Shown here piece after piece: positions 4,508 to 31,474 of a stretch of DNA of 64,000 bases. Each line of letters starts with the position of its first letter. The first letter of the stretch is position 1. Location: positions 8,098 through 72,097 of the forward strand of contig CAVXDT010000010.1 in the NCBI GenBank assembly GCA_963760525.1, written 5' to 3'. This DNA is from Nitrososphaeria archaeon (lineage in GTDB: Archaea; Thermoproteota; Nitrososphaeria; JACIWG01). A model generated the notes under the pieces. The model saw only the letters and a program-made list of their open reading frames with translations, had not been told where the DNA came from and made no database searches. The translations under genes and the position numbers were made by a program.

Positions 4508-4679
4508 TATACTACTATCAATTAGGCGGATAAGCGGACAGTTGATAATAAAGGTTCTTTAATCTGTCGGTTTGTAATCCTTCACAAATTCTCAGTAAAA
4601 GAATACAGTTCTCCTTCTCTAATGAGAAAAGGATGAGCAATCATTGTATGGCCTATTCCACAATGTAATCGAGCATTTA

Positions 4680-5288: not shown

Positions 5289-5456
5289 TATCTTGTTCAA
5301 CACTGTGTTTTTGCTTAAAAACTTTAGAAGGGAGTAAAAGTCAGGTTTGAGCCCAAATATTTGTGTCAATACCCGGCCCTCGGCACTATTATTTGCCCTC
5401 TTTTGCATGTAAGTTTATAAAATTATTGTCATGAGATTAGAAAGAGAGCAGATAAT

Positions 5457-6256
5457 ATGAAGTCTCTGTCCTGAATGCGGAAGTCAACTCCCTTCTGAAA
5501 CCGTTAAGTTTTGTCCAAATTGTGGTTTTAGCATAGCGGCAATTTCAGGCAGAGAAACTCCTTCACTTGAGGATTCCACAACACCATCATTATCCACGCT
5601 TCCACTTGCTGATTCTCAAGCTCAGACAAACCCTACAATCCCCACTGACTCAACTCCTCCCCCCAATGATCAACCTCCAACTATGAAGGATTCCTCCAAA
5701 AAGCTCGCAGTCAGCTCCGGCAAAACTTCTGGAAAAACCGCATTCGCTGTTGGCAAACCCACAGGGCAAAAGGTTCTTCCCAAACTACTCGAACTCACCG
5801 GAAAACAGTTACAAGATTTAATAGAAAACGCATCAAAAGAGGAAGATAGTGGGATAGAGGAAGGAGTAGCAGGGAAAGAGCTCGAAGGATATCGTAGCAG
5901 ACATATTTCAAATGCGGAAATATGAAGTCCGACAAAGGAACTACCACGTTTACGAAAGAGAAATAGACATAGTGGCGGCAAGAGGAGGGAACGCGGTTAT
6001 GGTAGAGTGCAAAGCGCGTTCAAATCCCCTGAGAACAAGAGATTTAGATTCATACATCTACTTATTCCAACATCTTAGGCATCAACGTTTTAAAGACGCA
6101 ACAATTCAGAAACTCATAATTGTAGCCCCAAAAGGCGGCGTTTCGAGTTCCGCCAAGGACAAAGCGTATCGGGAGATGGGCGATTCCATAGACTTCTGGG
6201 AGAAAGATAGGTTCATTCAGGAATACGAGAAAGTCAAATATGAAGTCAAATATTAA
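5457..6256 (+). pseudogene. Zn-ribbon + Mrr-cat-like PD-(D/E)XK nuclease, two frame disruptions
   Basis: ATG at 5457 gives MKSL and then a stop. The +1 frame continues CPECGSQLPSETVKFCPNCGF (zinc ribbon), a P/T/S-rich linker and ...GKELEGY. A second +1 shift near 5893 gives VADIFQMRKYEVRQRNYHVYEREIDIVAARGGNAVMVECKA, a restriction-endonuclease-type core. Confidence 0.7.
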
Positions 6257-6337
6257 TAGCAAGAAAGCCATCCTGAGCCAGAGTATTAAAGTATAATAAT
6301 AGTTACTTCCACAATATACTCGTAAGGGGAGAATAAG

Positions 6338-6820
6338 TTGGCTGGTTCAGACTTTTTAGTATCATTGGGCTTGTGGTTTGTTCGAGCTTTCATTTCAAGT
6401 CTCATTTGTCTGGTGATTGGATACATCGGAATTAGATGCATCACACTTATGACGACGAAGATCAAAGAGTTCGAAAGCCTCAAGGGTAATTCTTTAGCAA
6501 CTGGCCTTTTTGTCGGTGGCTTTTTTGTTTATGCTGGTTTGGTTGTCTATGGTTCGATGGTCAATCCTTTCTTCCTTTCTCAGTCAGTGACTGTGGGCGC
6601 ATACTTCAACTTGCAGAGACTCCTCGTTGTAATCATCAGTTTCTTCGTAAGTCTGTTCTTCGGTGGCATGTTCTATCTGGTTTTTGCCAAGCTCAGACCT
6701 TTCGGCGTTGACCTAGACGATATCAATAAGCATCCTATGGCTATTGGAATCTTCCTGTTCTGCTATGAGGTGTTCCTAGGACTCATCATGTTAGCAAGCT
6801 TGACCATTCCCATGGGATAG
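6338..6820 (+). CDS. DUF350-like integral membrane protein
   Basis: 160 aa with a TTG start preceded by GGGGAG. Four or more TM segments and an EFESLKGNSLATGLFVGG motif resemble DUF350 (YjfL-type). The frame is intact. Confidence 0.55.
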   Translation: MAGSDFLVSLGLWFVRAFISSLICLVIGYIGIRCITLMTTKIKEFESLKGNSLATGLFVGGFFVYAGLVVYGSMVNPFFLSQSVTVGAYFNLQRLLVVIISFFVSLFFGGMFYLVFAKLRPFGVDLDDINKHPMAIGIFLFCYEVFLGLIMLASLTIPMG

Positions 6821-6834
6821 CTGAGGAACAGCAA

Positions 6835-7671
6835 ATGACTCGCATACGGTTCCTGACTTTGTTGTCCATTTTCTGTGTTTAGTTGTTTCTCAGAGCCAAA
6901 CTGCCAACGGACTTCCAGCCTCAAGATTCACTATGAAGGAAGGCGATTGGTACGACAACTGGGGAATAGACAGAAACTATTACGCGGGGAACTCACGGTT
7001 ACCTACCCAACCTTGCGACTGAAACGCTCAACGAAAACAAAGAGCTCGCTTACGGTATTGGCGAGAGGTTTAAAGCTAACTATCCAAGTGAAACAGATAG
7101 GGCAGTTGCCATTTTGAAGTATGTTCAAACGTGGACGAAGTATGGATATGATAGCGATAACGTCGTTAGAGATGGCGTCCCTCAAGAAGAGTGGGCATGG
7201 AACGCTGATGAGATGGCGCACGCCTTCAACGAAACCACAGGCGTTAAGGCAATCGGAGACTGCGAAGACATGGCTTTCTTATGCGGCACAATCTATGTCG
7301 GTGCAGGTTTTGACGCTGCTATCGTGGATGCCCCCGATCACGTGTGCTCTGTTGATTTGGCTTCCTGAGTTCTCAAACGCAAACAACTATTGGGATATTC
7401 CGAATGACGGCAGAGACGCTGGTTGGATATGGGTTGAAGCTACTGGTAGCTCTAACCCTCTAGGTTGGACTCCGCCAGATTTCGAAGACGGCGGTGGACC
7501 GCGTATCCTATAGGTAGTTTGGAATTTGTTACTAATACTGTTACTCCCACTGCGTCTGAACCAACTCAGACGACCTCAACGTCAACCTCGATTGACATTG
7601 ACCTTCTGGTGGCAATTGCTGTAGTAATATTCTCAATCATTTCTGCTCTTACGAAGGCGCGTGGACGCTGA
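6835..7671 (+). pseudogene. secreted transglutaminase-like cysteine protease with C-terminal TM anchor, at least 4 frame disruptions
   Basis: The pieces read across frames. Signal peptide MTRIRFLTLLSIF / LCLVVSQSQTANG...MKEGDWYDNWGIDRNYYAGN. Next THGYLPNLATE...AIGDCEDMAFLCGTIYVGAGFDAAIVDAPDHV (Cys motif and His). Then ALLIWLPEF...GWIWVEATGSS, and finally TAYPIGS...TQTTSTSTS + LLVAIAVVIFSIISALTKARGR. Confidence 0.7.
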
Positions 7672-8004
7672 ATTTACTTGAATATCATGATGAGCGATTC
7701 CACTTAATCTGATGACTCCTTTCGCACGACAAAATCTGCCCCTTCATCATCGACTTTTGATGAATATACATCGAACCCATATTCGGTAAACTCCATCCTA
7801 ACGAAGTATTCTACATATCAAGTTGAAGGCGTTAAGGCTGCTCCATTCATATTTCTGGGTAGCATACTTCAAAGATAATCATAACAAAGTGGAAAAGCTT
7901 ATTGTGAATCTTACTAACGAAATTAATGCAAGCGCATAGCACAAATTTAAATAAGCATTTGGGTCTTACATTTTATTGCGGGGAATAGTGGGAATTAGTG
8001 AGTT

Positions 8005-10428
8005 ATGACTTCAAAAAATAGTTCGGGACCAAAAGAGCTAAGTGGAAACAACTTTTATGCAGATTCAGAAAAAGGTTTAAGCTCAGATGAAGTTCAAAAA
8101 AGATTAGAGGAATTTGGATACAACGAAGTTCCAGAGAAGAAGGCTAACCCTCTCTCCCAATTTGTGAAGAGGTTTTGGGGCGTAACACCATGGATGCTTG
8201 AAGTAACCATAGTACTCGAATGGCTTCTAGGAAAATTACTTGAAATGTACATAATATCTGGGCTTCTAGTCTTCAATGCAGTTTTGGGCTTTTTGAAGAG
8301 GAAAGAGCTAACTCTGCGCTTGAGCTTCTTAAGCAAAGACTGAGAGTCAACGCGAGAGCAAAACGTAGTGGGGCTTGGACATTGATTTCTGCAAGAGAGC
8401 TAGTACCTGGAGACATCATTAGGCTTAGAGCAGGTGACCTTATTCCCGCAGACACCAAGGTATTAATTGGGAGCGCTGAAGTCGATCAGTCATCACTAAC
8501 CGGAGAGTCCCAAGCAGTCGAAAAACAAGTTAATGAAGTATTATATAGTGGTTCAATCCTTAGAAGAGGCGAAATATCCGGTATTGTTGTCTCTACGGGT
8601 GTAAAAACGTATTTTGGAAGAACCGTGGAGCTAGTCCAAGTTGCGAAACCCAAGTTGCACATGGAAGAGGTGACTTCCAAGGTTGTAAAGTGGCTTGATG
8701 GCGATTGTGGGATCATTTCTTTCAATTAGCATAGTCGTCTCCATCTTGAGAGGGATGGATATACTGGAGATACTTCCGTTAGCGGTCGTTCTTTTGATTT
8801 CGGCAATACCTGTTGCTCTGCCTACGATGTTCACGGTCACCATGGCCCTTGGCTCCTTGGAAATGATGAAGAAAGGGATACTGGTTACAAGGCTGAGCGC
8901 AAGCGAGGATGCGGCGACGACGGATGTAATATGTGTTGATAAGACTGGGACAATTACCATGAACAAGCTTCAAGTGGCGGAGACTGTGCCTGCAAGAGGA
9001 TACAGAAATGAGGATGTAATATTGTTTGGCGCTTTAGCATCTAATGAGGCAAACCAGGACTCGATCGACCTTGCTTTCCTATCAGCTGCGAATAACATTA
9101 GTGACCCAATTTGAAGGTTATTTGCAAGAGAAGTTTGTGCCCTTTGATCCTTTGACCAGGAGAACAGAGGCTATTATCTCCATAGAAGGGAAGAGATTTC
9201 ATGTGCTTAAAGGAGCGGTTGGAACTATATTCTCTTTGTGCAAGATGGGCCAAGAAGCATCAAGCCAGATGGGAGAGGGAAGTTGAGCGATTATCAAATA
9301 AGGGGTATAGGGTGATAGCTGTAGCTGAAGGTAAAGCTGACTATGACATTAACATGGTAGGTTTAGCTGCGTTGTATGACAAGCCTAGACCTGATTCCCA
9401 AGAGCTAATAACTGAGCTTAATGAAGTTGGCATTTCAGTGAAGATGTTAACTGGAGACGCTTTGCCAGTAGCTAAAGAAGTTGCAGAGCAGGTCGGCTTA
9501 GGCAAAAACATTGTCAAGTTCTCAGATGTAAAAGGGCTCCCGGAGGACGAACTCATTAAGACTTTGGAAGGAAATAGTGGATTCGCGGAGATCTATCCGG
9601 AGGACAAGTACTCTATAGTTAAGAGTCTTCAGAGAGGAGGGCACATTGTTGGAATGACAGGCGATGGCGTCAACGATGCTCCTGCCTTGAAACAGGCTGA
9701 AGTAGGTATAGCTGTAAGTAACGCTACGGATGTAGCTAAGAAGGCTGCCAGCGCTGTCCTCACAACAGAAGGACTAGTGGGTATACTGGACCTAATTAAA
9801 ACCGGTAGGATCATACATCAGAGGATAATAACTTGGATTCTTAATAAAGTGGTCAAAACATTCCAGATAACCATTCTAGTAGTCCTCGCATTTCTTCTGA
9901 CAGGAACGTACATAATATCCGCGTTTCACATGATCTTACTGATATTCTTAACAGATTTTGTAACCTTATCGTTATCAACAGACAATGTTCGATATTCTGA
10001 AAAACCAGATAGCTGGAATATAACAGGCCTGGTCAAGGTGGCTGTTTGCCTTGGGGGTTATAGTTGTGGCAGAGTTGCTGATCATACTCGGAATAGGCCT
10101 TAATTACTTTGGGCTCGGGAACAATATCAATCAATTGTATACTTTTTCGTTCGAACTGCTGATCTACGTGGAATTATGTGATATGTTGATAGTTAGGGAA
10201 CGGAAACATTTCTGGAATTCGAGACCCAGTAATCCTTTACTAATAATAATTTTAGGCGACCTATTGCTTGTCTTCCTCATATCAATTTTTGGGTTACCTG
10301 GGGTGACTCCGATAAATCCAATCATCGCTCTGATGGTTCCAGCGTTTTCTTTCACTGCAGCCTTCTTAGTGAATGATTTCATCAAGGTACCTTTAATAAA
10401 GAAGTTTTGGTCGAGAGTAGGTTTCTGA
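8005..10428 (+). pseudogene. type III (plasma-membrane H+-type) P-type ATPase, five frame disruptions
   Basis: Six consecutive ORF fragments (8005, 8382, 8695, 9044, 9201, 10051) together give a colinear P-type ATPase. Motifs present are TGES (SLTGESQAV), the phosphorylation site CVDKTGTITMNKL, and the hinge MTGDGVNDAPALKQAEVGIAV. Junctions lie near 8290 (T5 run), 8695, 9097, 9268 and 10055 (G5 run). Confidence 0.85.
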
Positions 10429-16398: not shown

Positions 16399-16558
16399 CC
16401 ATTTGGGATACCTTAACTTTTAAAGTTTTGGATTAATAAGTTTGAAGCAATAAGTAACCTAACTAATTAATTTCTTTCCAGTAATCATGATTTATTAGAG
16501 ACCTTGCGTCCAATAGCTTCTTTGCGTTTGATTAAAGGCTTTAATACTTGACTGTGTT

Positions 16559-18355
16559 ATGATTCCTAAAATGCACATTAAGTCAAAGTTGAGAAGGATT
16601 TCTGCCATAATACTTCTGCCAGTGTGCCTGATAAACCTGTTATCTTTAACGCCTTTGGTGCTGGCTAATGAGCAGGGACAGCCAAACCCGCTTTGGAACC
16701 GAAAATGGGACGTATTATACCCCTCCAATATTGCTGTGGGTGATGATGGCATCTATGTTGCTGGAGCGTGGGGTGGTCAGAGTCCATCAAATGCTACTCT
16801 AACCAAGTTTAATTTTAGCGGGCAGAAAATTTGGAATCAAAGTTGGGGCGGACCAGCACCTGACGCAGGCTTTGATGTCGCTGTAGAAAACAACAGTGTC
16901 TATATGGTAGGGTTTACTTCAGTTGGAGCCTACTATAAGGCTTTTCTTGTAAAATATGATGGCGACGGTAATCTGATTTGGAATAGAACTTGGGCAGAGT
17001 ACTCTGAACACTCCTATGGCGTAGCAGTAGACGGCAACTACATTTACGTAGTAGGTGAAAGAAGCTATGTCCAAGGAGGCCAAGATGCGTTTATAGCCAA
17101 GTTTGATGCTGAAGGAAACCAACTATGGAACACCACGTGGGGAAGACAACCTGACGATTCCGTTGGCAATGGAGTAACAGTTGACAGTAGCGGAGTGTTC
17201 ATAGTTGGAAACACTGGTGAATTCGCATTCCTGACTAAGTATGATGCTAACGGAAACCAGTTGTGGAATTTAACTTGGCGAAGTGAAAATGGATGGGCTT
17301 CTGGCCAAAGAGTCGCAGCGCATGACGATAGCATCTATGTCACTGGAATCACACGGCCTTTTGACGGAGTAGATGACGCTCTCCTTATGAAATACGATGT
17401 TAATGGGAACCAAATCTGGAACAGGACATGGGGAGGGTCATCAGTTGAGGAGGGTTTTGGTGTTGCGGCTACTGATAGCGGGGTCTACATGGTTGGAGAT
17501 ACATATTCCTTTGGAGCTGGACTAATGGATGCCTTCTTGGCTAGGTATGATATTGATGGAAATCAGCTATGGAACACTACGTGGGGAACGTTAGAATATG
17601 AAAATGGTCTCGGAGTCACTGTTGACAGCAACAATATTTACATGGTTGGAGACAACATAGATTCACATTATGGTTTCTTAGTCAAGTTCGCCATCTTCTC
17701 CAAACCTCACCTATCAGACTTCAACCTGCTTTTCGTGGAAAACGATGTTCGAGTCATTTATCCCTCGGATGCTGGCAGCAAGCCACTCGGATGCGTTCCA
17801 GCGAAGCCCACCGACTGGACAGCGTCAGCGTACGTTACGACGAAGCTCGGAAGCTATGTTGAGGGCTTGGACACAGATAGCAGTTTCGTGGACCAAACGT
17901 GGGGTAAAGCAGTTGGAAGCCGTGGAAATGGTATTATCAGCTTCGGAGGTCCAGCGGTGAACCCTGTTCTAAAATATGCTGAAGCCGACTCTACGCCGGA
18001 AGTGGATAGGGCTCCGGTTAAATGGTATGATGAAGGCGGTATCGTCTATCGCTTCAAATACTCTAATGGGACGGATGTTCCTGGTGCGGAGGTCAACACG
18101 TCTAGGTTCAACAGTGAGGACCTGTTCGTAATCGAAGTCTACATGGATGGGGATGGTAGGCTGATCCTGTTGTCCTATGGCTTCGGGTGGAAGGGCACTT
18201 ATGCGGCAGGAAAATACTTTCATTCTGTGATCTACCCTAACATAGACTCGTATGATGTGGGCTGGCTGATAGTAAGATGGGAGGATACGAACCACGACAC
18301 TTTCGTTAACCTTCCAGGCCAAGGCGACACCTACACCCTAATAGCGTCAGCGTAG
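16559..18355 (+). CDS. secreted SBBP-type beta-propeller repeat protein with unknown C-terminal domain
   Basis: 598 aa with a signal peptide (LLPVCLINLLSLTPLVLA). Seven repeats of about 48 aa have the pattern G[NQ]xxWNxxWG...GxxVxxDxxxIYxxG. The C-terminal ~215 aa are unrecognised. Confidence 0.75.
   Translation: MIPKMHIKSKLRRISAIILLPVCLINLLSLTPLVLANEQGQPNPLWNRKWDVLYPSNIAVGDDGIYVAGAWGGQSPSNATLTKFNFSGQKIWNQSWGGPAPDAGFDVAVENNSVYMVGFTSVGAYYKAFLVKYDGDGNLIWNRTWAEYSEHSYGVAVDGNYIYVVGERSYVQGGQDAFIAKFDAEGNQLWNTTWGRQPDDSVGNGVTVDSSGVFIVGNTGEFAFLTKYDANGNQLWNLTWRSENGWASGQRVAAHDDSIYVTGITRPFDGVDDALLMKYDVNGNQIWNRTWGGSSVEEGFGVAATDSGVYMVGDTYSFGAGLMDAFLARYDIDGNQLWNTTWGTLEYENGLGVTVDSNNIYMVGDNIDSHYGFLVKFAIFSKPHLSDFNLLFVENDVRVIYPSDAGSKPLGCVPAKPTDWTASAYVTTKLGSYVEGLDTDSSFVDQTWGKAVGSRGNGIISFGGPAVNPVLKYAEADSTPEVDRAPVKWYDEGGIVYRFKYSNGTDVPGAEVNTSRFNSEDLFVIEVYMDGDGRLILLSYGFGWKGTYAAGKYFHSVIYPNIDSYDVGWLIVRWEDTNHDTFVNLPGQGDTYTLIASA
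16676..17700 (+). repeat. seven tandem SBBP-like blade repeats (protein level)
   Basis: The blades are marked by LWNRKW, IWNQSW, IWNRTW, LWNTTW, LWNLTW, IWNRTW and LWNTTW at about 48-aa spacing. Confidence 0.7.
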
Positions 18356-18654
18356 ACAGACGAAAAGAAGCCTGCTTCAACTGAACGATTAGAGGGCAGA
18401 AGTAGGATATATGGCAGCGGAGGCCTTCGGCAACACTTTTTTGGATAATGATGCGTGCGTAAGCTGTAAAAATCCTAGAAGGAGCTTCAAATCCTATAAG
18501 CATTGAATTTCTGTCAGTCACGAACCCTGATTTCGGAACCAAATATAGCACTGAAAACGCATTGCATCCCACCCGTTCACTCTCACGGATAATGTATGAA
18601 TACCCCATAACGATATAAATATATGAAAAGCAACACTGATGATTGAGAAGTCTT

Positions 18655-19704
18655 ATGTTTGATTTGTTTCTTGGAAGTCTAGCGAGAATTCCTAAACTTG
18701 AATCACGTTCAATTTCAGCAGAGAACATGCAAGGAGAAAAAGGTAAAGGTGGAATCGCGTCGAGTTCGCTTGGCGTTGGTCGCAAAGGAAGCCCTTGTAT
18801 ACGACTAAAGGCAAATGAAACTAGAACATTAGCTGAGATAAGAGGACCAGGATGTATTAGGCATATATGGATAGGGTTTAGAGAGGATTTAAGATTCCTC
18901 AGAGGAGCCCTTATTCGCATCTATTGGGATAACTTGCCATATCCCAGTGTTGAGTGCCCAATTGGCGACTTCTTCGGCGTTTCTCATGGAAGATGCGCAC
19001 CATACGCTTCTCTACTTACTGCGATGGTTGAAGGGCGAGGATATAACACTTGGATACCAATGCCATTCAATTCAGCTCGAGTCGAAATAGCATACGAGAC
19101 AGTCATAGACACAAGAACAGATAACAGACTCTTCTATCAGATCGATTACACTCTAGGTGACGAAGTCGATAACGTTGGAAGGCTCTGCTGCACTTTTAGA
19201 AGAGAAAATCCAACAACCATTGGTAAAGACTTCACTATCCTAGAAAGAGTCGAGGGAGAAGGTCGTTTTCTCGGAGATGTTGCCGGGGTCAGGACGATGG
19301 GAAGGGAATGGTGGGGTGAAGGAGAAATCAAGGTCTACTTGGATGGTGACAAAGAATTCCCAACCATATGCGGTACAGGAACTGAAGACTACATCTTATC
19401 CGCTTGGGGGGTTGGACAACATGCAAACCTATATCAAGGATGCCCACTTCATAGAAAAGACTTGATATCATTCTATAGATGGCACATTCTAGATCCCATT
19501 TACTTCCATAAAGACATCAAGATCACAATCCAGCAAATAGGTTTCCGTTACAGCGATCGAACATTGTTTGAGAGAAGTGATGACTGGTCTGTAGCAGCAT
19601 TCTACTACGTTCTACAACCTAAAGAGCTGCCAAAGATCCCTAGCGTCGAAGAAAGAATAGCAGACATCACTGAACAAAGAGAAAGTGTTCCCGCACCTTT
19701 GTGA
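18655..19704 (+). CDS. DUF2961 / glycoside hydrolase family 172-like protein
   Basis: ORF 18643..19704 with a probable ATG at 18655. SISAENMQGEKGKGG and GEGEIKVYLDGDKEFPTICGTGTEDY match my recollection of DUF2961 signatures. Confidence 0.65.
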   Translation: MFDLFLGSLARIPKLESRSISAENMQGEKGKGGIASSSLGVGRKGSPCIRLKANETRTLAEIRGPGCIRHIWIGFREDLRFLRGALIRIYWDNLPYPSVECPIGDFFGVSHGRCAPYASLLTAMVEGRGYNTWIPMPFNSARVEIAYETVIDTRTDNRLFYQIDYTLGDEVDNVGRLCCTFRRENPTTIGKDFTILERVEGEGRFLGDVAGVRTMGREWWGEGEIKVYLDGDKEFPTICGTGTEDYILSAWGVGQHANLYQGCPLHRKDLISFYRWHILDPIYFHKDIKITIQQIGFRYSDRTLFERSDDWSVAAFYYVLQPKELPKIPSVEERIADITEQRESVPAPL

Positions 19705-19833
19705 TATGGCTTCTTCTTTATCTAATAATATTCCAACTGTTTTACCTTATGTTGTCTGCAAATGAATAGAGAAAAGAGCATGTACGTCCAATTTCTTTCA
19801 AAGTTTTAATAAAACAAAAACTGAACTCAAATT

Positions 19834-20910
19834 ATGGACTATCACGAAATAGAGACTCCGGCCTTAATCTTGGAAGCAGACGTCATGGGACATAATATGA
19901 AAGTCATGAGAGAATGGTTGTATGGAAAGAATGTCAGGTTAAGGCCTCATTTTAAGACACCTAAGACACCTATTATTGCATGGCAACAAATACGAAATGG
20001 CGCCTTGGGTGTCTGCGCTCAAAAGCTTGGCGAAACCGAGGTGCTGGTTAATGCTGGAATTGAAGATATACTGCTTACTAATCAGATCGTAGATGAGAAT
20101 AAGATATTGAAGCTGGTAAATATGCGCAAGTATTCGGATATCAAGGTGGTTGTCGATAATGTTGCGAACATAAGAGATCTATCTAAACATGCGTCAAGGA
20201 AGAAAGTCGAAATTGGAGTTCTTGTTGAGATTAACGTGGGAATGAACAGATGCGGCATCGATGATCCTAGGGAAGCTCTTAGTGTTGCCAAGACTGTAAA
20301 CGAAAGTGAAGGTCTAGTTTTCAAAGGTTTGCAATGCTATTCAGGACATTTACAGATGGCTGACTTGAAGATTGGACGAGAAAAAAAGATAGAAGGATGT
20401 AAAAAGGTCTGCCAGAAGATAAACGAAACTAGAGAACTTTTTGACAATGAAGGCCTTCACCCTGAAATCATTTCTGGTGCGGGCACGGGAACTTACAAAT
20501 ACGAATATGAAGTATTAGATGAAATTCAAGCAGGATCCTATATTTTTATGGATGTTGGTTACAATAAGGTTGCGCCAGAATTTAGCATTTCTTTAACGTT
20601 GCTCGCAACAGTAATTAGTACACCTTCGAAGAATAGAGCGATAATAGATGCTGGGCTAAAAGCGATTTCCACCGACAACGGCATGCCAGTATTGAAGGAC
20701 ATTAAAGGCGTTGAATGTCTAATAAGTTCAGAGGAACACGGAGTTCTTATAGTAAATGATCAATCTACGCAGTTCAATATAGGAGATAAAGTCGAACTCT
20801 ATCCGAGCCATTGCGATACAACAGTAAATCTACATGATGCATACAACGTTGTCAGAGACGGTGAACTTGAAGCCGTATGGCCAATAAGCGCACGAGGACA
20901 ATTTTATTGA
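19834..20910 (+). CDS. D-serine dehydratase-like / D-threonine aldolase family PLP enzyme (alanine racemase N-terminal fold)
   Basis: 358 aa. It has the PLP-lysine motif LRPHFKTPKT and a C-terminal ELYPSHCDTTVNLHD typical of the DSD1/D-TA family. Confidence 0.75.
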   Translation: MDYHEIETPALILEADVMGHNMKVMREWLYGKNVRLRPHFKTPKTPIIAWQQIRNGALGVCAQKLGETEVLVNAGIEDILLTNQIVDENKILKLVNMRKYSDIKVVVDNVANIRDLSKHASRKKVEIGVLVEINVGMNRCGIDDPREALSVAKTVNESEGLVFKGLQCYSGHLQMADLKIGREKKIEGCKKVCQKINETRELFDNEGLHPEIISGAGTGTYKYEYEVLDEIQAGSYIFMDVGYNKVAPEFSISLTLLATVISTPSKNRAIIDAGLKAISTDNGMPVLKDIKGVECLISSEEHGVLIVNDQSTQFNIGDKVELYPSHCDTTVNLHDAYNVVRDGELEAVWPISARGQFY

Positions 20911-21348
20911 GCCAAAGTTTTTTTCCATGATCTCGACGCAGCTTCGAAAATACTGATTTCTAAGCATCATTGCTGTACGATTTTCCATAATCTCCACACG
21001 ACAGTTTTATGATTCATTTGTACCTCTTGTGCGCCATATCTGACACGGATACCCTCGTTTGCGGAGTATCTTGCTACGAAAAGCTGTCCACTTATGCTTC
21101 AATCTGCCTTAGCTTATACCAAAAGATTCAGCAAATTTCTCTAACGCTCTGAGCCCTCTTTCTTCCCTATCTTTTTCCAGAACCTCTTCAGATTCAATGG
21201 AAATCTGAATACAATCAGAGCAATTCTTACGGGAGCCTTCTATCCCATTCGTTATATCTGATGGGAGTATCATTCCTTGTTGAATATCTTGTTTCTGAGT
21301 TTCTTTGTGCGTTATAAGAAACTGTCTCCACTTATGTTTCAATCGACC

Positions 21349-22377
21349 TTACCTGATTTCCTGTCTGGTGAATAGCATATATGAGGCGATGAAAGCGATG
21401 ATCATCACCAATACAAGCACTAGGATGTTTGGCCAAGCAGAAGATAGACTCTCCGTGACCGAAACACTTCTTACACTGGAAGAGGAAGAAGAAGTGGTAG
21501 TTGTGGTAGTTGTTCTAGTAGAATTCCCCCCGGCAAACCCTCCTGGAGGCACTCCACCAGGCCCACCAATCCCTCCTCCGGTTCTACCTATATTTACAGA
21601 ATATTCTAAAATGTACTGCGCTATTTTACTGAAATGGTAGTTTGGTGTAAAACTATTTATTGTTTCTTCGATTGCAGTACGTTTAGTATATAATGCTATG
21701 AGTTCTGAGTTTCCAGTTCTGGTTATGTTCTGTCCTGGTTGGAAGCTTATGGGCACCATGCTTGTTGCGACAAGAGAAGCAATGATAGATATTATGAACG
21801 CTGAGATGATCCAGATTACAACACCAACGATCACGCTTGTTGTAGTTCTCTTTGAAACTGTGGATAAGAAGATGGCTATGCCATAGAATGTCATAGCGAA
21901 GATGATGGAGAACAACATGAAGAGCGTGAGCCTTGCGACATCATCGCCTGTTGGGGTTATCCCTAGAGCTATCACGGAGACTGCAATGTTTGAGATGGTT
22001 GCTATTAGTGTTGCTAAAGAGATGGCGAGAAAGGCAGAAAGAAATTTCCCATTTATTATTGTGTCTCGGAATACAGGTTGGGCTAGGGTTAATTTAAGTG
22101 TGCCTTTTTCCTTCTCGCCAGATATCGCATCAACACCAAGGGCTAGACCCAAGATTGGGGCGAAGTATGACATCATAGTACCCAAGCTATTTGCGACTCT
22201 GCTGAGAAACGAGCGGGGCATGCCAGCTTGTGCTGCCGTGTTTTGTGCATTCGAAAGATAGACTGTTGCTACAGCAGCACCCATTACTAAAGCAAACACT
22301 GCCACAAGTAAGATGAACCTTCTGCCTTTCACTATGTCTGAGAATTCCTTAGATGCAATAGTAAACGTATTAGCCAT
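21349..22377 (-). CDS. ABC-2 (NosY-like) exporter permease with G/P-rich and T7S6 low-complexity loop before last TM
   Basis: 342 aa with six or more TM segments. The N-terminus MANTFTIASKEFSDIVKGRRF is typical of ABC-2 permeases. There is an 8-nt overlap with the upstream ATPase gene. Confidence 0.8.
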   Translation of the reverse strand: MANTFTIASKEFSDIVKGRRFILLVAVFALVMGAAVATVYLSNAQNTAAQAGMPRSFLSRVANSLGTMMSYFAPILGLALGVDAISGEKEKGTLKLTLAQPVFRDTIINGKFLSAFLAISLATLIATISNIAVSVIALGITPTGDDVARLTLFMLFSIIFAMTFYGIAIFLSTVSKRTTTSVIVGVVIWIISAFIISIIASLVATSMVPISFQPGQNITRTGNSELIALYTKRTAIEETINSFTPNYHFSKIAQYILEYSVNIGRTGGGIGGPGGVPPGGFAGGNSTRTTTTTTTSSSSSSVRSVSVTESLSSAWPNILVLVLVMIIAFIASYMLFTRQEIR

Positions 22378-23326
22378 ATATTATCCCCTCTCTATTATAG
22401 TATTTAATAAATAGATCTTCGAGGGATGGCTCCAGTAGGTCGAGTGTAAGGATTTCAATCCCATGTATTGGTGCTAGTTTACCGATTTCTATTCTGATAT
22501 CGCTGGTGGCGCGAACAATGAGAACCTTTCCTTCTAACTTGACTTCCTTTACACCATTTAGTTCTGCTAGACTATTAGCGAATAGTCCCAAGTTCCCTGT
22601 TCCCTCAATCTTGATCCTATATCCTTCTTCAGTCATAAGTTTTTCAATAAGCTCCTTGACGTTTCCCTGTGCAACAAACTTACCATGGTTAATTATGCCA
22701 ACTTCTTTGCAGAGAGGCCCCACTTCAAAAAGTAGGTGAGTGCTAAGCATTACAGTTTTTCCCTCATTACTGAGTTTAATAACCAAGTCCTTAAAGGCTC
22801 TTGCTCCTTCAGGATCTACACCAGCTGTTGGCTCATCGAATATAAGAAATTCTGGGTTCTTTATAAAAGCTTGAGCTATACCTAACCTCTGCTTCATTCC
22901 TCTTGAGAAGCCACTATACTTTCTGTCTTTAACTTCATGTAAACCCACAGTTGTCAAAGCTTCGCTTACCCGCTTTTCTCTTTCTTCTTTAGGAATATCA
23001 TTTAATGCTGCAATATAGCGGAGATTTTGCTGGGCTGTCAGGTTGTCGTAGAAACCGAAGCCTTCAGGCAAGAGACCAATCTTTTTCCGAATCTGTATAG
23101 ACTCTTTCATAATATCATATCCGAGAACCTTTGCAGTGCCACTTGTTGGCAATGTTAGACCAGACATCATCATTATGAGAGTTGTCTTACCTGCTCCGTT
23201 AGGTCCCAATAAACCAAATACGGAGCCTTTTTCAATGGTTAGGTTTATATGATCCACAGCTAACACAGTGTCTTTCTCAGACTTGTATGACTTGGTTAGA
23301 TCATTAGTTTCAAGAGCGTATTCCAA
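22370..23326 (-). CDS. ABC transporter ATP-binding protein (ABC-2 exporter type)
   Basis: 318 aa with Walker A GPNGAGKTT, signature FSRGMKQRLGIA and Walker B FLIFDEPTAGVD. Confidence 0.9.
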   Translation of the reverse strand: MEYALETNDLTKSYKSEKDTVLAVDHINLTIEKGSVFGLLGPNGAGKTTLIMMMSGLTLPTSGTAKVLGYDIMKESIQIRKKIGLLPEGFGFYDNLTAQQNLRYIAALNDIPKEEREKRVSEALTTVGLHEVKDRKYSGFSRGMKQRLGIAQAFIKNPEFLIFDEPTAGVDPEGARAFKDLVIKLSNEGKTVMLSTHLLFEVGPLCKEVGIINHGKFVAQGNVKELIEKLMTEEGYRIKIEGTGNLGLFANSLAELNGVKEVKLEGKVLIVRATSDIRIEIGKLAPIHGIEILTLDLLEPSLEDLFIKYYNREGIIYG

Positions 23327-23332
23327 TCATAT

Positions 23333-26300
23333 TCACCTTCTTCCAAACCTCCTATAAATAAAGAATAGCCCCACGACTGCTAATATAATGAGTATTACTG
23401 CATATATGATCCAGTTCGTTGTTTGGAGAACTTCAACCCTTAACGTGACGACTTGGGATGTGGTTTGATCAGATGATATGGTGAAGTCGATATAATAGTT
23501 GCCAGCATTGACACTTGGGTCTGTCTGGGCTGTGATGGTGAAGGTGGACTCCTGATTTGTTTCTAATGAGGATGTGGATGTAGGGTTAACGCTTACAGTG
23601 AAACCATCTGGTGCTGTTCCTGCGACAACCTTCGCATTTGTGATCTCTCTGCTTCCGTCATTCAGGATGGTCAAGGAGAATGTTCCTTGACTACCAACAT
23701 TCAAAGAGGTGTAGAAGTTCTGGTTGGTTATTGTGACTTCGTATTTGCCTACGATGTTAAGGGTTAGATCTATTGTTTCATTTAATTCAGCATTGAATGC
23801 TGAGGTAGAGAACGCTTGGGGTCCTAATTCCACCTTTGTGGGTGTTGAGACAATCATATAGAATTGTTTTGACTGACTTGCCTGCACGTAGACCTTAGTG
23901 ATCTCTTGTTCCGTAGTGTCTTCGAACCAAACCTTAAAGTCTTTTGTTAGTCCTACAGTTGTAAGGTTAAGAAGTTCATCATAACCACCTAAATCAGAAA
24001 GTTTGAGCGTGAACTTTGCTTGGGAGCCTCCGTACACATCTTCATAAGGTGGGATGGCTTCTAATCCGATACTCGCGGTGTGTCTTTGTATAACTAGAAG
24101 CAATGGTAGATCCTCAGACAGCCATGTGGACTTTGCTGTGAAGACTAAATCATATTTTCCTTCGCTGACACTTAATGGTGTGGAGACTGCAATGACAAGA
24201 TCTACAGACCCGCTTCCTTCCAACGTCACTTCTGACACCGTTTCACCTTGGGTGTTCATAATGGACACAATCCAATCTTTCTGGATTGAGTCAACCGAAA
24301 CGCTGAAAAGCTGTTTGACATCTGTTGGGTTCATCACATTAACTTTGAATTGAACGGTTTCGCCAGGTGCAGCAGACTTCCCAGGAAACTGGCAGGATAT
24401 TACTGTCTTAGTTGAAGGCTGGACCTTTATCATAAAATCTAGTGATGAATTTATTTTTCCGATAGCTGTTAGAGTTAAGTTATAGTTCAAGAGAGCCGTT
24501 GATGGAACCATGACTTCCAACGTAAGCGACAAACTCTGCCCAGACGCCAACGCAGCCTTTAAAACCTCTTGGTCATCCTGACCGAGAATTCGCGTAGACC
24601 ACCCTCCAGGATTGGATACCAAAAACACTATGGTTTCTGACACTCCGCCAATATTGCTCACCATGAATGGAATCAGCAGCTTACTGCCAGGACTTGCAAC
24701 CACACTCAAGACCGAGGAAGACAACTTGACAGCTTTAGCCAACACTATTTCCCCAACATCGACATTCACATCTTTCAAGACAACATTCTTAGCGACTTCA
24801 ACATATCCCTCCCTCGAAAAGTGGACGGAGACCGTGGTGGAAGTCGGCAATTCAATTGAGAAGGCTCCATTGGGAGATGTGTCTGAACTCCCAATAAGAA
24901 CCCCATCAGAAGAATACACTTCGATACCAACTTCCTCCATCCTCTTGCCATATTCATCCACAACGTTACCGGAAAATGTGATAGCAGGCTGGGAACGAGT
25001 GACTATCGTAAAAACCAATGACGAATTAGTAGCCGTTCCAATAACCGTTAATGGGATATTATAATCCATATCCAAGAGAGCCGTTGATGGAACCATGACT
25101 TCCAACGTAAGCGACAAACTCTGCCCAGACGCCAACGCAGCCTTTAAAACCTCTTGGTCATCCTGACCGAGAATTCGCGTAGACCACCCTCCAGGATTGG
25201 ATACCAAAAACACTATGGTTTCTGACACTCCGCCAATATTGCTCACCATGAATGGAATCAGCAGCTTACTGCCAGGACTTGCAACCACACTCAAGACCGA
25301 GGAAGACAACTTGACAGCTTTAGCCAACACTATTTCCCCAACATCGACATTCACATCTTTCAAGACAACATTCTTAGCGACTTCAACATATCCCTCCCTC
25401 GAAAAGTGGACGGAGACCGTGGTGGAAGTCGGCAATTCAATTGAGAAGGCTCCATTGGGAGATGTGTCTGAACTCCCAATAAGAACCCCATCAGAAGAAT
25501 ACACTTCGATACCAACTTCCTCCATCCTCTTGCCATATTCATCTAAGACCCTGCCTGAGAAGGTAATCGTGGGTATGGAACGAGTGACTATCGTAAAAAC
25601 CAATGACGAATTAGTAGCCGTTCCAATAACCGTTAATGAAATATTGTAACCTAGGTTCAAGACAGCTGTTAATGGAACCGAAACCTCCAACTTAAGCGAC
25701 AAACTCTGCCCAGGCGACAACGCAGACTTTGAAACCTCATAGTTCTGGTCCATAACACTTACAGACCAAGTTTGAGGCTTCGAAACTTGATACTGCACAA
25801 CTTCGGATCCTTCACCAAGATTGCTCACCGTAAACGGAATGCTGATTTCGTCCCCAGGAGCAGCTAACAAGCTTAAGGTTGAAGCTGAAAGCTTCAAAGC
25901 CTTACTCAAAACTATGGAACGAGTGACTATCGTAAAAACCAATGACGAATTAGTAGCCGTTCCAATAACCGTTAATGAAATATTGTAACCTAGGTTCAAG
26001 ACAGCTGTTAATGGAACCGAAACCTCCAACTTAAGCGACAAACTCTGCCCAGGCGACAACGCAGACTTTGAAACCTCATAGTTCTGGTCCATAACACTTA
26101 CAGACCAAGTTTGAGGCTTCGAAACTTGATACTGCACAACTTCGGATCCTTCACCAAGATTGCTCACCGTAAACGGAATGCTGATTTCGTCCCCAGGAGC
26201 AGCTAACAAGCTTAAGGTTGAAGCTGAAAGCTTCAAAGCCTTACTCAAAACTATGGTACCCAAATTAGTGAGTATGTCCTGCACGTTGATGTTCTTAACA

Positions 26301-26578
26301 GTTTTAGAGTATCCAGTCTTAGTAAAGTAGAAGCTGACTGTTCCGTATTCGACAAACATATTAAATGATCCATTTGAATCTGTAGAGGTTGTAGCAATAA
26401 GAGTTCCACCAGCGTTGTATACACTTACTTTGACATTGCTAAGCTCCACACCTTCTTCGTCCACAACTACACCATAAGTTGCAGCGTATTGAGCCGCGAA
26501 TGAGGATGGCAAAAAGGATATGGAAACTGCCATAATCACCAAAATCAAAGTCAAGCTTCCGTTTACTTTCTTAATCAT
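23333..26578 (-). CDS. large cell-surface protein: signal peptide, CarboxypepD_reg-like and NEW3/CARDB-like (COG1470-type) modules, C-terminal TM anchor
   Basis: 1081 aa with a signal peptide. It has repeated modules, VVDEEGVELSNVKVSVYN...SNGSF (carboxypeptidase-regulatory-like) and APGDEISIPFTVSNLGEGSE (CARDB/NEW3-like). The C-terminus is WIIYAVILIILAVVGLFFIYRRFGRR. It ends 6 nt upstream of the ABC ATPase gene. Confidence 0.85.
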   Translation of the reverse strand: MIKKVNGSLTLILVIMAVSISFLPSSFAAQYAATYGVVVDEEGVELSNVKVSVYNAGGTLIATTSTDSNGSFNMFVEYGTVSFYFTKTGYSKTVKNINVQDILTNLGTIVLSKALKLSASTLSLLAAPGDEISIPFTVSNLGEGSEVVQYQVSKPQTWSVSVMDQNYEVSKSALSPGQSLSLKLEVSVPLTAVLNLGYNISLTVIGTATNSSLVFTIVTRSIVLSKALKLSASTLSLLAAPGDEISIPFTVSNLGEGSEVVQYQVSKPQTWSVSVMDQNYEVSKSALSPGQSLSLKLEVSVPLTAVLNLGYNISLTVIGTATNSSLVFTIVTRSIPTITFSGRVLDEYGKRMEEVGIEVYSSDGVLIGSSDTSPNGAFSIELPTSTTVSVHFSREGYVEVAKNVVLKDVNVDVGEIVLAKAVKLSSSVLSVVASPGSKLLIPFMVSNIGGVSETIVFLVSNPGGWSTRILGQDDQEVLKAALASGQSLSLTLEVMVPSTALLDMDYNIPLTVIGTATNSSLVFTIVTRSQPAITFSGNVVDEYGKRMEEVGIEVYSSDGVLIGSSDTSPNGAFSIELPTSTTVSVHFSREGYVEVAKNVVLKDVNVDVGEIVLAKAVKLSSSVLSVVASPGSKLLIPFMVSNIGGVSETIVFLVSNPGGWSTRILGQDDQEVLKAALASGQSLSLTLEVMVPSTALLNYNLTLTAIGKINSSLDFMIKVQPSTKTVISCQFPGKSAAPGETVQFKVNVMNPTDVKQLFSVSVDSIQKDWIVSIMNTQGETVSEVTLEGSGSVDLVIAVSTPLSVSEGKYDLVFTAKSTWLSEDLPLLLVIQRHTASIGLEAIPPYEDVYGGSQAKFTLKLSDLGGYDELLNLTTVGLTKDFKVWFEDTTEQEITKVYVQASQSKQFYMIVSTPTKVELGPQAFSTSAFNAELNETIDLTLNIVGKYEVTITNQNFYTSLNVGSQGTFSLTILNDGSREITNAKVVAGTAPDGFTVSVNPTSTSSLETNQESTFTITAQTDPSVNAGNYYIDFTISSDQTTSQVVTLRVEVLQTTNWIIYAVILIILAVVGLFFIYRRFGRR
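24488..25657. repeat. tandem 585-bp (195-codon) duplication inside the surface-protein gene
   Basis: Copy 1 (24488-25072) and copy 2 (25073-25657) look identical by eye for about 470 bp. They then differ in a ~40-bp patch (24957-24995 vs 25542-25580), are identical again for ~60 bp, and diverge at the end. Confidence 0.9.
25575..26252. repeat. perfect tandem 339-bp (113-codon) duplication inside the surface-protein gene
   Basis: 25575-25913 and 25914-26252 read identically base for base by eye. The unit starts with the same ~75 bp that also ends each 585-bp unit. Confidence 0.9.
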
Positions 26579-26865: not shown

Positions 26866-27277
26866 ATGTATAGAATGGAATTAACTTTGGAAGAAGCAAA
26901 AAAGATCGTACAAGATGCAGAAGCTAAAGCAAAAGAGATAAGCGTCATGATGAACATCGCAGTTGTAGATATCGGCGGAAACCTAATCGCATTTGAGAGG
27001 ATGGACAAGGCCTGGCTAGGAAGCATAAACATAGCCATAAACAAAAGCGTTCACAGCAGTTGCGTTCAATATGACGACCGAGGATTTAGGCAAAGAATCT
27101 CAAGCAGGCAAATCACTCTTTGGAATACACGCAACAAACAACGGCAGACTGGTAATATTCGGCGGCGGCATTCCTCTAAAGAAGAAAGGTGAACTTGTAG
27201 GCGCAATCGGCGTCAGCGGAGGAGCTGTACCCCAAGACATAGAAGTCGCCAAAGCAGGCATTAAAAACTTCAAGTAG
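26866..27277 (+). pseudogene. GlcG/HbpS-like (DUF336) heme/corrinoid-binding family protein, one frameshift at an A4 run
   Basis: ORFs 26866..27192 and 27071..27277 join as ...INIAINK|AFTAVAFNMTTEDLGK...GGGIPL...GAIGVSGG. The junction is at the A-run 27043-27046. Confidence 0.7.
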
Positions 27278-29626: not shown

Positions 29627-31474
29627 ATGCCTAACGGATATATGGGAAAAATCGGCGTAATCGATCTTTCGGATAAAACAGTGAAAATTAAGGATACACT
29701 TGAAGAATACGCAAAGAAGTATCTCGGAGGAAAAGGCTACGCACTGGCACTCCTCTACGAATACTTAAGAGAATTCGAGTCTAAAGGCAACGCAGCAAGG
29801 GACTTGGATCCCTTAGGCCCAGACAATATTCTTATTTTTGCAACAGGTCCTGGCACAGGAATACCAGGTTTCCCGTCGCCCGGAAGATATCAGGCAATGG
29901 CGTTACGTTCTCCACTAACGGGTTCCATAGGTAGCGCCAATTCTGGTGGAGAATTCGGTGCCTTCCTCAAGTTCACAGGTTTCGATGCTTTAGTAATAAA
30001 AGGTGCTTCTGAAAAACCAGTTTACATCTCTGTCGTAGATGGTTCAATAGAGGTTCATGATGCATCTGGATATTGGGGGAAGACGGTCTTCGATACTGAC
30101 GATTTTCTTAGGAAGACTGTAAGCGGGAAAAACGTAAGCGTAGCATGTATAGGAGTTGCTGGAGAAAATCTTGTGCCAATGGCTGTAATCGTGAACGATA
30201 AGCATCGCGCAGCGGGAAGAACTGGATTAGGGGCGGTCATGGGGTCGAAGAAGTTGAAGGCCATAGTTGTCTCTGGTTCCGGGCACGTTTCTATTGCGAA
30301 TCCAGCGAAGTTCAAGGAAGTTTCTAAGGCAGCTTACGAAAAGGAAAGGAAGAACTCTGTTACGGGTGATGGGCTTCCAACATATGGTACAGCGGTCCTT
30401 GTCAACGTAGTAAACAGCGCAGGAATCTTGCCTTACATGAACTGGCAGTTCGGCTTCAATCCTAAAGCGGACAAGATTAGCGGAGAAACCCTCACGAAAC
30501 AATATCTTGAAAAGAAAAGACCATGTTGGGGGTGTAACATCGCTTGCGGGCGCATAAGTTCCGTAAAATCAGGTCCATATCAAATATCACACACAGAGGG
30601 ACCTGAATATGAGAGCATATGGGCGCTGGGAAACTCAACAGGGATCATGGACATGGGCGCTATTATAAAGGCAAATCACCTGTGTGATGAATTCGGACTT
30701 GATCCCATCTCAGTCGGTTCAACAATTGCTGCTGCAATGGAACTACACCAGAAAGGTTACATTAAAGAAGGAGACCTTCAAGGTATGGATCTATCCTTTG
30801 GAAATGCGTCTGCTTTAGTTGATTCAGTTTGGAGGATCGCCCACAAAGATGGATTTGGAAAGTATCTTGCCCTAGGATCAAAAAGACTCTGTGAGATGTT
30901 CGGAGCTCCCGAGCTTTCCATGAGTGTAAAAGGGCTCGAGATGCCTGCCTATGATCCACGGGGAGTGAAAGGAATGGGTTTGAACTATGCAACAGCTAAC
31001 CGTGGAGGCTGTCACGTGACAGGGTATACAATTGCTCCTGAAATAGTTGGGCTTCCGGAAAAAATTGATCCATTAACTATTGAAGGAAAAGCAAAGTGGA
31101 CAAAAACCTTCCAAGATTTGACATGCGTAGTGAACTCTACAGTCAACTGCCTATTTACTACCTTCGCTTTGAGCGCGTCTGATATCGCATCTCTATTGTC
31201 AGCTGTAACTGGATGGAGTCTCACAGAAGATGAAGTAATGAAGATTGGTGAAAGAATTTACAACTTTGAGCGCTTCATAATCAGCAAATACGGGTTCACA
31301 GACAAAGAAGACACTCTGCCCCCTCGTCTACTATCTGAACCCATGCCTGAAGGTCCAGCGAAAGGACAGACAGTCGACCTAGAAACAATGAAGAAAGACT
31401 ATTACAATCTAAGGGGATGGGTGAAGGGAGTACCAACACAAAAGAAATTGAAAGAGCTTCAAATTGAGCTCTAA
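29627..31474 (+). CDS. aor: tungsten-containing aldehyde:ferredoxin oxidoreductase (AOR family)
   Basis: The N-terminus MPNGYMGKIGVIDLS resembles AOR N-termini. EYESIWALG, DPISVGSTIAAAMEL and NRGGCHVTGY motifs are present. The track ORF starts at TTG 29600. Confidence 0.9.
   Translation: MPNGYMGKIGVIDLSDKTVKIKDTLEEYAKKYLGGKGYALALLYEYLREFESKGNAARDLDPLGPDNILIFATGPGTGIPGFPSPGRYQAMALRSPLTGSIGSANSGGEFGAFLKFTGFDALVIKGASEKPVYISVVDGSIEVHDASGYWGKTVFDTDDFLRKTVSGKNVSVACIGVAGENLVPMAVIVNDKHRAAGRTGLGAVMGSKKLKAIVVSGSGHVSIANPAKFKEVSKAAYEKERKNSVTGDGLPTYGTAVLVNVVNSAGILPYMNWQFGFNPKADKISGETLTKQYLEKKRPCWGCNIACGRISSVKSGPYQISHTEGPEYESIWALGNSTGIMDMGAIIKANHLCDEFGLDPISVGSTIAAAMELHQKGYIKEGDLQGMDLSFGNASALVDSVWRIAHKDGFGKYLALGSKRLCEMFGAPELSMSVKGLEMPAYDPRGVKGMGLNYATANRGGCHVTGYTIAPEIVGLPEKIDPLTIEGKAKWTKTFQDLTCVVNSTVNCLFTTFALSASDIASLLSAVTGWSLTEDEVMKIGERIYNFERFIISKYGFTDKEDTLPPRLLSEPMPEGPAKGQTVDLETMKKDYYNLRGWVKGVPTQKKLKELQIEL

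Follow-up and report, generated by a model that had tools for sequence, protein, structure and literature searches.

Two long tandem repeats lie within a single surface-protein gene of an uncultured Bathyarchaeia archaeon, and they raise the question of whether the organism truly carries them and, if so, how and when they arose. The gene, P0001 (1081 aa by ORF list and translation; 23333-26578), was studied within a window of 64,000 nt from contig CAVXDT010000010.1 (GCA_963760525.1), part of a metagenome-assembled genome (MAG) of 1.22 Mb that is 68.5% complete. All coordinates are positions of this window, and apart from two antisense ORFs, the gene and all features located below are on the reverse strand. 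P0001 is predicted to begin with a signal peptide, to continue through ten β-sandwich domains, and to close with a C-terminal anchor in the membrane and the tail sequence RFGRR. With HMMs built here, the domain order is C-N-N-C-N-C-N-N-N-N (C, CarboxypepD_reg; N, NEW3), the distal-most domain being parsed as another CarboxypepD_reg domain. Both assignments clear the Pfam cut-offs, with 93.8 bits for PF10633 (NPCBM_assoc/NEW3; cut-off 24.4) and 71 bits, in three matched stretches, for PF13620 (CarboxypepD_reg; cut-off 32.3). Surface anchoring is likewise a prediction, made from an N-terminal signal-like helix and a hydrophobic helix at residues 1056-1078 followed by RRFGRR. The gene is the first of a conserved operon: 6 bp past its end begins an ABC transporter ATPase (22370-23326; Pfam ABC_tran and NCBIfam DrrA/GldA-like matches), which overlaps by 8 bp with an ABC-2 permease of the NosY/GldF-like type (21349-22377; Pfam ABC2_membrane_2). 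This order is kept in the Pfam-annotated loci L013, where the operon occurs twice, and L017; for L002 it was deduced from ORF sizes only.

Comparison with relatives indicates what has been gained. Close relatives (database homologues, up to 57% identity) measure 751-788 aa and follow the order C-N-C-N-N-N-N, the same single-copy layout as in L017, the nearest relative. Alignments of P0001 with homologues (A1 and A2) are full-length and collinear, with invariant columns through R1080 and R1081, and take in the TM anchor, the RFGRR tail, and the three N domains nearest the membrane; in the domain tree, the domains fall into orthologous groups by position. The three membrane-proximal NEW3-like domains, N3-N5 (23432-24415; HMM domain parse and domain tree), occur in one copy each, and throughout the family each falls into a stable group of orthologues. 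In four same-family genomes, the open frames are 775-809 aa long and align with P0001 over residues 1-220 and again from about 453-517 to 1081, but nowhere between. Both repeat periods are divisible by three, giving 113 and 195 codons, and the units correspond to whole domain modules; given that 1081-113-195 leaves 773 aa, and given the layout of the relatives, both duplications are lineage-specific gains of whole domains. The initial annotation had proposed that whole-domain modules are tandemly duplicated at the DNA level, and had called for a comparison of module number in relatives; the units prove to be in frame, domain-bounded, and single-copy in every close orthologue. A third C domain was seen in none of the 33 homologues examined, and no same-genus genome was found for comparison. 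P0001 is the longest close member, only two longer sequences occurring among the best 150 of 820 representatives (E up to 0.001). NEW3 membrane proteins encoded beside ABC-2 transporters match it in domains, anchor, RFGRR tail, and operon, but P0001 has three extra distal domains. Self-matches of at least 100 bp and at least 90% identity number only 11 in the whole 1.22-Mb genome, and two of them fall in P0001: the period-585 repeat (668 bp, 94.6%) and a 344-bp perfect repeat. The repeats of P0001 are far beyond chance.

The shorter unit covers a single NEW3 domain. Positions 25574-25917 and 25913-26256 are identical over 344 bp, with 0 differences, a run composed of the 339-bp period and 5 bp of microhomology, and TRF counts 2.0 copies, which are 100% identical; the earlier description of this unit as repeated without differences is thereby confirmed, and the array end, formerly placed at 26252, moves to 26256. 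The first copy, Na1 (25918-26256; aa 108-220), is orthologous to N1 and clusters with the N1 domains of orthologues in the domain tree; the second, Na2 (25579-25917; aa 221-333), follows directly. In codon-register alignment the pentamer CCATA (gene strand) recurs at the left border (26252-26256), at the junction (25913-25917), and at the right border (25574-25578), that is, exactly at domain borders. N1 alone would have been copied when two of these pentamers took part in illegitimate, microhomology-mediated recombination or in slippage during replication, and this copy looks very recent.

The longer unit is a mosaic. With a period of 585 bp, a tract of 471 bp is repeated with 0 differences: the first copy, B1 (25073-25543; aa 346-502), contains C2a (a C domain) with the head of Nb1 (a NEW3 domain), and the second, B2 (24488-24958; aa 541-697), holds C2b and the head of Nb2. 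There follows a diverged patch of 33 bp, in which 16 bases differ between P1 (25544-25576), the N1-to-C2 linker IPTITFSGRVL, and P2 (24959-24991), the linker QPAITFSGNVV before C2b, the latter unique in the genome. None of the 11 codons is identical between the two, seven differing synonymously and four non-synonymously. Beyond this patch the copies agree again over 62 bp without a difference (24992-25053 and 25577-25638). The initial annotation had thus been right on the roughly 470 identical bp and on the return to identity, and had overestimated the patch, at about 40 bp. It had also drawn the mosaic too simply, a second diverged patch, x (19 bp; 25054-25072), lying between the 471-bp tract and the tail, within the hybrid domain Nb1; patch x is unique in the genome and unlike both the N2 tail and the present N1 tail. 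Contrary to the earlier claim, a shared ending of about 75 bp is not found in all four copies: the common tail is 62 bp long and belongs to three NEW3 domains, as T1 (25916-25977), T2 (25577-25638), and T3 (24992-25053), the last being an N1-type tail on Nb1. The most C-terminal copy, Nb2, has its own diverged tail (24407-24487), of native N2 type, which carries a 2-codon deletion and aligns with the N2 tails of orthologues. In gene coordinates, Nb1 is identical to Nb2 through position 1506, and from 1526 onward it is identical to the N1 tail.

This hybrid points to the way in which the longer unit may have formed. In the domain tree Na1 and Na2 group with N1, and Nb1 and Nb2 with N2; within P0001, N1 and N2 share 83-89% nucleotide identity in one tract, including a 21-bp exact match, whereas in four orthologues their identity is 36-69% and the high-identity tract is absent, which speaks for an older exchange between the two. 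The 585-bp unit would derive from unequal homologous recombination between these paralogous NEW3 domains, the crossover yielding C1-N1-C2-[N2 head/N1 tail]-C2-N2, and recent intragenic gene conversion would then have made the flanking 471-bp and 62-bp tracts identical. Between the paralogous units in cis we observe identical tracts interspersed with strongly diverged patches, the mosaic by which concerted evolution through intragenic gene conversion is recognized. The diverged patches retain only 52% and about 60% identity and their synonymous sites are saturated; because of this saturation, the 585-bp duplication is probably not new but older and homogenized by gene conversion, an argument on age carried by only 54 diverged bases. 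Where the initial annotation had offered very recent duplication or ongoing conversion for the array as a whole, recency suits the 339-bp unit, while for the 585-bp unit an older duplication with gene conversion is the best reading.

The same 54 bases could be read differently, namely that both duplications are very recent, that a diverged strain or species donated x and P2 by recombination, and that the 62-bp tail was re-converted later, with no old duplication at all. The combined y1+P1 sequence matches L017 at 40 of 54 bases, near the overall orthologue level of 68-77%, and x+P2 does so at 29 of 54 only, P1 being the version nearer to L017; x+P2 and y1+P1 are about 56% identical, against 74% for the nearest orthologue, as a distant donor would explain, and the lack of a third C domain in all 33 homologues also fits a young duplication. 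This scenario nevertheless demands at least three events, among them an exact 62-bp re-conversion between two patches and an import from outside, for which no donor turned up, and its signal is confined to 54 bases; neither a donor nor a paralogue for the diverged patches was detected in the recovered genome (the 68.5%-complete MAG). An old duplication followed by conversion calls only on processes already seen in P0001 and in L013, and we regard import as unlikely.

The assembly itself could also be at fault. Had an extra repeat cycle or stitched strain haplotypes produced the array, the true gene would be of the canonical 773 aa or of some other copy number. The MAG was drawn from a mixed population (between contig L016 and the window there are 9 SNPs and 1 homopolymer indel), short reads resolve perfect repeats of 344-471 bp poorly, and an exact look-up of P0001 and fragment-sized homology searches returned no second assembly with the whole array. 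Metagenome scans by protein and by a degenerate DNA pattern of the shared tail gave no match, and searchable collections held no near-identical strain. Two flanking Logan contigs (k=31 assembly), L015 (run ERR10755944) and L016, were recovered through neighbouring genes, and the first supplies independent evidence. L015 corresponds to window positions 16487-24517 and agrees with the MAG at 100% identity over 8 kb, including 1.2 kb of P0001. It ends at 24517, 30 bp (k-1) inside tract B2, exactly where a contig should break at the repeat border under a k=31 unitig model, as expected if the reads hold both continuations; the Logan assembly branches exactly where tract B ends. The assembler alternative that the initial annotation had raised is weakened by this break for the 585-bp unit, on which, rather than on the 339-bp junction, the Logan evidence bears. 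The k=31 unitigs predicted for the B tract, the Na head, and the 5' part were not on record in Logan. Patches x and P2, as unique sequences, must stem from real reads, and physically join the N2 head, the N1 tail, and the start of C2 within 114 bp, so that even a two-strain chimera would still require a strain with the hybrid domain. At the 339-bp junction the microhomology is only 5 bp, and therefore no k-mer (de Bruijn) cycle could have generated it. Both units are, furthermore, in frame with edges at domain borders, as expected of real, selected duplications, and an analogous duplication exists in a second genome, GCA_030153565.1. Together, these observations make an artefactual array quite improbable. 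Consensus building and bubble-popping may nonetheless erase a few true copy differences, and the perfect identity of the copies is therefore an upper bound.

The second genome, also from the Bathyarchaeia, offers a parallel case. Its homologue P0010 (906 aa; L013/L014) is of the same family and operon layout, and contains a mosaic tandem duplication of N1 with a period of 342 bp, in which 215 bp are identical and the tail that follows has dropped to about 55%. Unlike P0001, it has gained one extra domain only, lacks the C2-N duplication, and has been homogenized in the head of the domain but not in its tail. Given that the two P0010 copies are sisters in the domain tree, this event was independent. 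Internal exact repeats were found in no orthologue other than P0010.

Overall, with a probability of about 0.7, we favour the reading that the array is real and that whole extracellular modules were duplicated in tandem twice, in frame and in this lineage alone, by the mechanisms proposed above; what we infer within it is how the recombination took place, how old the two events are relative to each other, and whether surface reach is affected. Both duplications would sit in the half far from the membrane, within a type-I-anchored protein co-transcribed with an ABC-2 exporter, the ectodomain having grown from seven to ten β-sandwich domains and the protein from 773 to 1081 aa, and with such long identical tracts in place, modules would be likely to be gained, lost, or converted again. 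In an AF2 model (mean pLDDT 84) P0001 is all-β with a helix at 1056-1078, and all ten modules, hybrid included, are confident β-sandwiches, the Na1-Na2 junction being a low-confidence linker; the pTM of 0.34 leaves the overall shape undefined. Foldseek returned only generic Ig-array matches at TM <0.3 (hydin, the MG domains of alpha-2-macroglobulin), and no sequence match was found in the PDB. Programmed variation, by site-specific recombination or a diversity-generating retroelement through which the cell would switch its distal modules in number or in sequence, would draw its sole support from a general likeness to variable surface proteins; the locus has no flanking recombinase, reverse transcriptase, or inverted repeats, and its joints are plain homology or microhomology, making such a system extremely improbable.

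Duplications of whole modules by the proposed routes bring P0001 close to known systems. The bacterial Periscope Proteins (SasG, Rib/alpha C, Sgo_0707, CdrA) change in length by what is accepted to be homologous recombination between repeats (Whelan et al. 2021, PMC8201768; PMC9704523). They share with P0001 surface anchoring and a stalk of Ig-like domains (both predicted for P0001), and long, identical or near-identical tandem repeats at the DNA level. P0001 is, however, archaeal, and archaea are absent from both of these papers; its copies agree at 100% along 344 bp and along 471+62 bp, yet each of its two units has only two copies, where Periscope Proteins carry a long array. Further differences are that one unit is a two-domain module with a hybrid domain, that a distinct ligand-binding head is not visible, and that the gene is encoded with an ABC-2 transporter. 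Periscope repeat number varies between closely related strains, whereas P0001 is known here from one assembled allele. Streptococcal M protein, whose size variation has likewise been put down to intragenic recombination (Hollingshead et al. 1987, cited in PMC9704523), resembles the present case in unequal homologous recombination, in-frame intragenic repeats, and altered surface-protein length; the M protein repeats are short coiled-coil blocks and the process was demonstrated experimentally, whereas those of P0001 are folded β-sandwich domains and its history is read from sequence. P0001 is a clear but ordinary case of length change in repeat-built surface proteins, a well-known phenomenon. 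That the distal C-N modules of this ABC-transporter-linked family form an archaeal Periscope counterpart, in which conversion-kept tracts let module number vary from cell to cell or strain to strain within one Bathyarchaeia population and so tune reach from the cell surface, is a doubtful proposition; the C-N module would then have been duplicated anciently (to C-N-C-N), independently in GCA_030153565.1, and twice in P0001. Such copy-number variation, if true, would extend the concept of variable-length surface proteins to archaea.

What the gene offers is three stages side by side: an old, partly decayed conversion tract, a putative crossover hybrid domain, and an apparently brand-new microhomology duplication, in a lineage of uncultured archaea whose cell surface is essentially uncharted. 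Different assemblies of this organism will probably differ here by whole modules, and the annotated 1081 aa, where about 773 aa is usual in the family, is not to be taken as a fixed length. Our literature search found nothing on surface-protein duplications in Bathyarchaeia or on run ERR10755944; COG1470 is named by one paper, and only in passing, and one family homologue is labelled "uncharacterized membrane protein" in its JGI source. Frameshift sites in the 5.4-10.5 kb region of the window are not clearly homopolymer-bound. Other neighbours of the operon in the window are D-threo-3-hydroxyaspartate-aldolase-like, HbpS-like, and Staygreen-like genes. Two antisense ORFs of 150 aa each (24612-25064 and 25197-25649) were rejected as genes, since they are the repeated DNA read in reverse.

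The repeats lie in a surface-protein gene (23333-26578, minus strand; an ORF of 1081 aa) from a metagenome-assembled genome (MAG) of 15 contigs, 68.5% complete. The encoded protein has a signal-like N-terminus and, at its C-terminal end, a hydrophobic helix with RRFGRR after it; Pfam assigns it CarboxypepD_reg (C) and NPCBM_assoc/NEW3 (N) domains. An ABC ATPase gene starts 6 bp past it and shares an 8-bp overlap with an ABC-2 (NosY/GldF-like) permease gene; this three-gene order is also present in relatives, and named homologues carry the label Bathyarchaeia. At period 339, 25574-25917 equals 25913-26256 over 344 perfect bp (repeat finder, TRF and per-base period scan concordant). At period 585, 24488-24958 equals 25073-25543 over 471 bp with no differences (tract B), next to which stands a 33-bp patch with 16 mismatches between copies (P1, 25544-25576; P2, 24959-24991), and beyond it 24992-25053 and 25577-25638 are identical over 62 bp. 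The tandem repeats reported in the initial annotation are thus present, as are the identical tracts around a diverged patch in the 585-bp unit, although a second, smaller patch of 19 bp (x, 25054-25072) had been overlooked. An ending of ~75 bp shared by all four copies, as had been stated, is not borne out: the 62-bp tract recurs a third time at 25916-25977 and is common to three NEW3 domains, the fourth having its own tail. Self-BLAST of the whole 1.22-Mb genome yielded just 11 repeats 100 bp or longer, which sets those of the surface gene apart from background. Identical 150-aa antisense ORFs (24612-25064 and 25197-25649, plus strand) were rejected as genes, being merely repeated DNA read in reverse.

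Parsed with domain HMMs built for this analysis, the protein reads C-N-N-C-N-C-N-N-N-N, against C-N-C-N-N-N-N in its full-length close homologues (751-788 aa); subtracting 113 and 195 residues from 1081 leaves 773 aa, the family norm. Module number compared across related genomes confirms that both units are extra here. In four same-family genomes, open frames of 775-809 aa match only residues 1-220 and ~453-517 onward. The nearest relative found (JGI 3300056618; ~66% amino-acid identity) has the canonical layout, and its surface gene (1618-3907) contains a frameshift inside N2, either real or a sequencing error, that yields overlapping frames of 338 and 443 aa. In the N-domain tree, orthologous grouping is stable for the three membrane-proximal domains, the two copies of the 339-bp unit (Na1 and Na2) group with the orthologues' N1, and the NEW3 domains of the 585-bp copies (Nb1 and Nb2) with N2. 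Both duplications are, on these comparisons, judged lineage-specific. The C-N module itself seems to have duplicated anciently as well, since N1, N2 and the first N of shorter C-N-N-N-N forms fall in one clade; lengths among family representatives span ~400-1231 aa, with steps of about one domain. An AF2 model (33-sequence alignment, mean pLDDT 84) predicts ten separate beta-sandwiches plus the terminal helix, with low confidence at the new Na1/Na2 joint (residues 220-227) and at residues 333-335, the pTM of 0.34 leaving the overall shape undefined. Foldseek against PDB gave generic Ig-array matches only, and a PDB sequence search gave no match.

The two units point to distinct histories. The period-339 identity run measures 339+5 bp, and the pentamer CCATA (gene strand) marks the C1/N1 and N1/C2 borders as well as the new junction, a signature consistent with microhomology-mediated tandem duplication; the unit would have arisen via slippage or illegitimate recombination between these pentamers. 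With zero differences between copies, this duplication would be very recent. Nb1, in turn, is a hybrid that equals Nb2 up to gene position 1506 and the N1 tail from 1526, a structure that unequal crossover between N2 of one chromosome copy and N1 of the other is expected to generate, in the order C1-N1-C2-[N2 head/N1 tail]-C2-N2. The shared N1-N2 tract, 83-89% identical here with a 21-bp exact core and 36-69% identical in four orthologues, provides a recombination substrate, and also indicates earlier exchange between both domains, now partly decayed. The diverged patches do not look young on base-level comparison: P1 and P2 differ in all 11 codons (seven synonymously, four non-synonymously), and against the nearest relative y1+P1 matches 40/54 bases, close to the 68-77% found overall for orthologues, with just 29/54 for x+P2. 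The most economical reading is an older 585-bp duplication: its copies diverged, and distinct conversion events later made the 471-bp and the 62-bp tract uniform. Alternatively, and less probably, the duplication may be recent, with the patches imported and the 62-bp tract converted again later. The signal that bears on this choice spans 54 bases, and such a history needs a diverged donor, of which none was seen in genome, homologue or metagenome searches. The earlier proposal of very recent duplication or ongoing gene conversion is partly supported: the first part suits the 339-bp unit and the second fits the 585-bp tracts, whereas the diverged patches suggest that the 585-bp duplication is older.

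That the array is an assembly artefact rather than true genomic structure appears unlikely. The MAG does differ from a nearby Logan contig (L016, k=31, run ERR10755944) in homopolymer length and by nine SNPs. However, x and P2 occur nowhere else in the genome and connect N2 head, N1 tail and C2 start within 114 bp, and so have to stem from real molecules with two C2 copies. A second Logan contig of that run, L015, recovered via the neighbouring ATPase, is 100% identical to 16487-24517 and ends exactly at 24517. That end, k-1 = 30 bases within the 471-bp repeat, is where the repeat border is expected when unitigs are modelled from the assembled sequence; the reads thus hold two different continuations past tract B. 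Five bp of microhomology cannot make a k-mer cycle, from which we infer that the 339-bp junction should be read-supported as well. Both units are in frame with ends at domain borders, as explained by selection on real variants, not by assembler error. Moreover, N1 has been tandemly duplicated separately in another Bathyarchaeia genome, GCA_030153565.1 (period 342 bp; 215 bp identical, tail ~55% identical), and the same sequence also occurs in a JGI assembly; no internal exact repeats were found in other orthologues. In GCA_030153565.1 the entire three-gene operon stands twice in tandem (locus positions 1-8633; surface proteins of 914 and 906 aa), with a trypsin-like/PDZ protease gene between the copies. 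Two copies per unit is the assembled number, and the true one could be higher, cycles being collapsible; consensus building can mask a few real differences between copies, and the array is not necessarily fixed in the population.

Long identical in-frame repeats that encode stalk domains and change in number by recombination are known from bacterial Periscope Proteins and M-protein size variation (PMC8201768, PMC9704523). The surface gene resembles these in its proposed mechanism and predicted consequence, but it has only two copies per unit and no evident distinct head domain. It is a candidate for that class rather than an established member.

Upstream, L016 starts at 26646, 68 bp before the surface-gene ATG; from the MAG sequence by itself no k=31 branch is expected at that point, and the Logan contig expected over the gene's 5' end was not found. 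At 27040-27046 (ORF 26866-27192, plus strand) the window has AAAA and L016 AAA; the HbpS-like gene encodes 133 aa in L016, and the 108-aa window ORF matches only profile positions 1-74 of 128, probably through a 1-bp homopolymer error, or variant, in the MAG. The nine SNPs fall in 29830-31222, six within 31058-31222 (3' part, aldehyde:ferredoxin oxidoreductase gene), while L015, flanking the opposite side of the surface gene, is 100% identical over 8 kb, which suggests local strain variation or recombination. Elsewhere, a 311-bp repeat (52467-52777) recurs with 100% identity on another contig (C2:1883-2193); an overlapping ORF (52330-52719, minus strand) had no match in a Pfam search, and a nearby 112-nt tRNA match (52953-53064, minus strand) probably contains an intron. 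The genome also holds a perfect 103-bp tandem duplication (C8:60145-60350) and a 749-bp inverted match at 99% (C14:12-760 and C3:1019-1765), near the ends of both contigs, where a repeat may have been left unresolved at the contig break.
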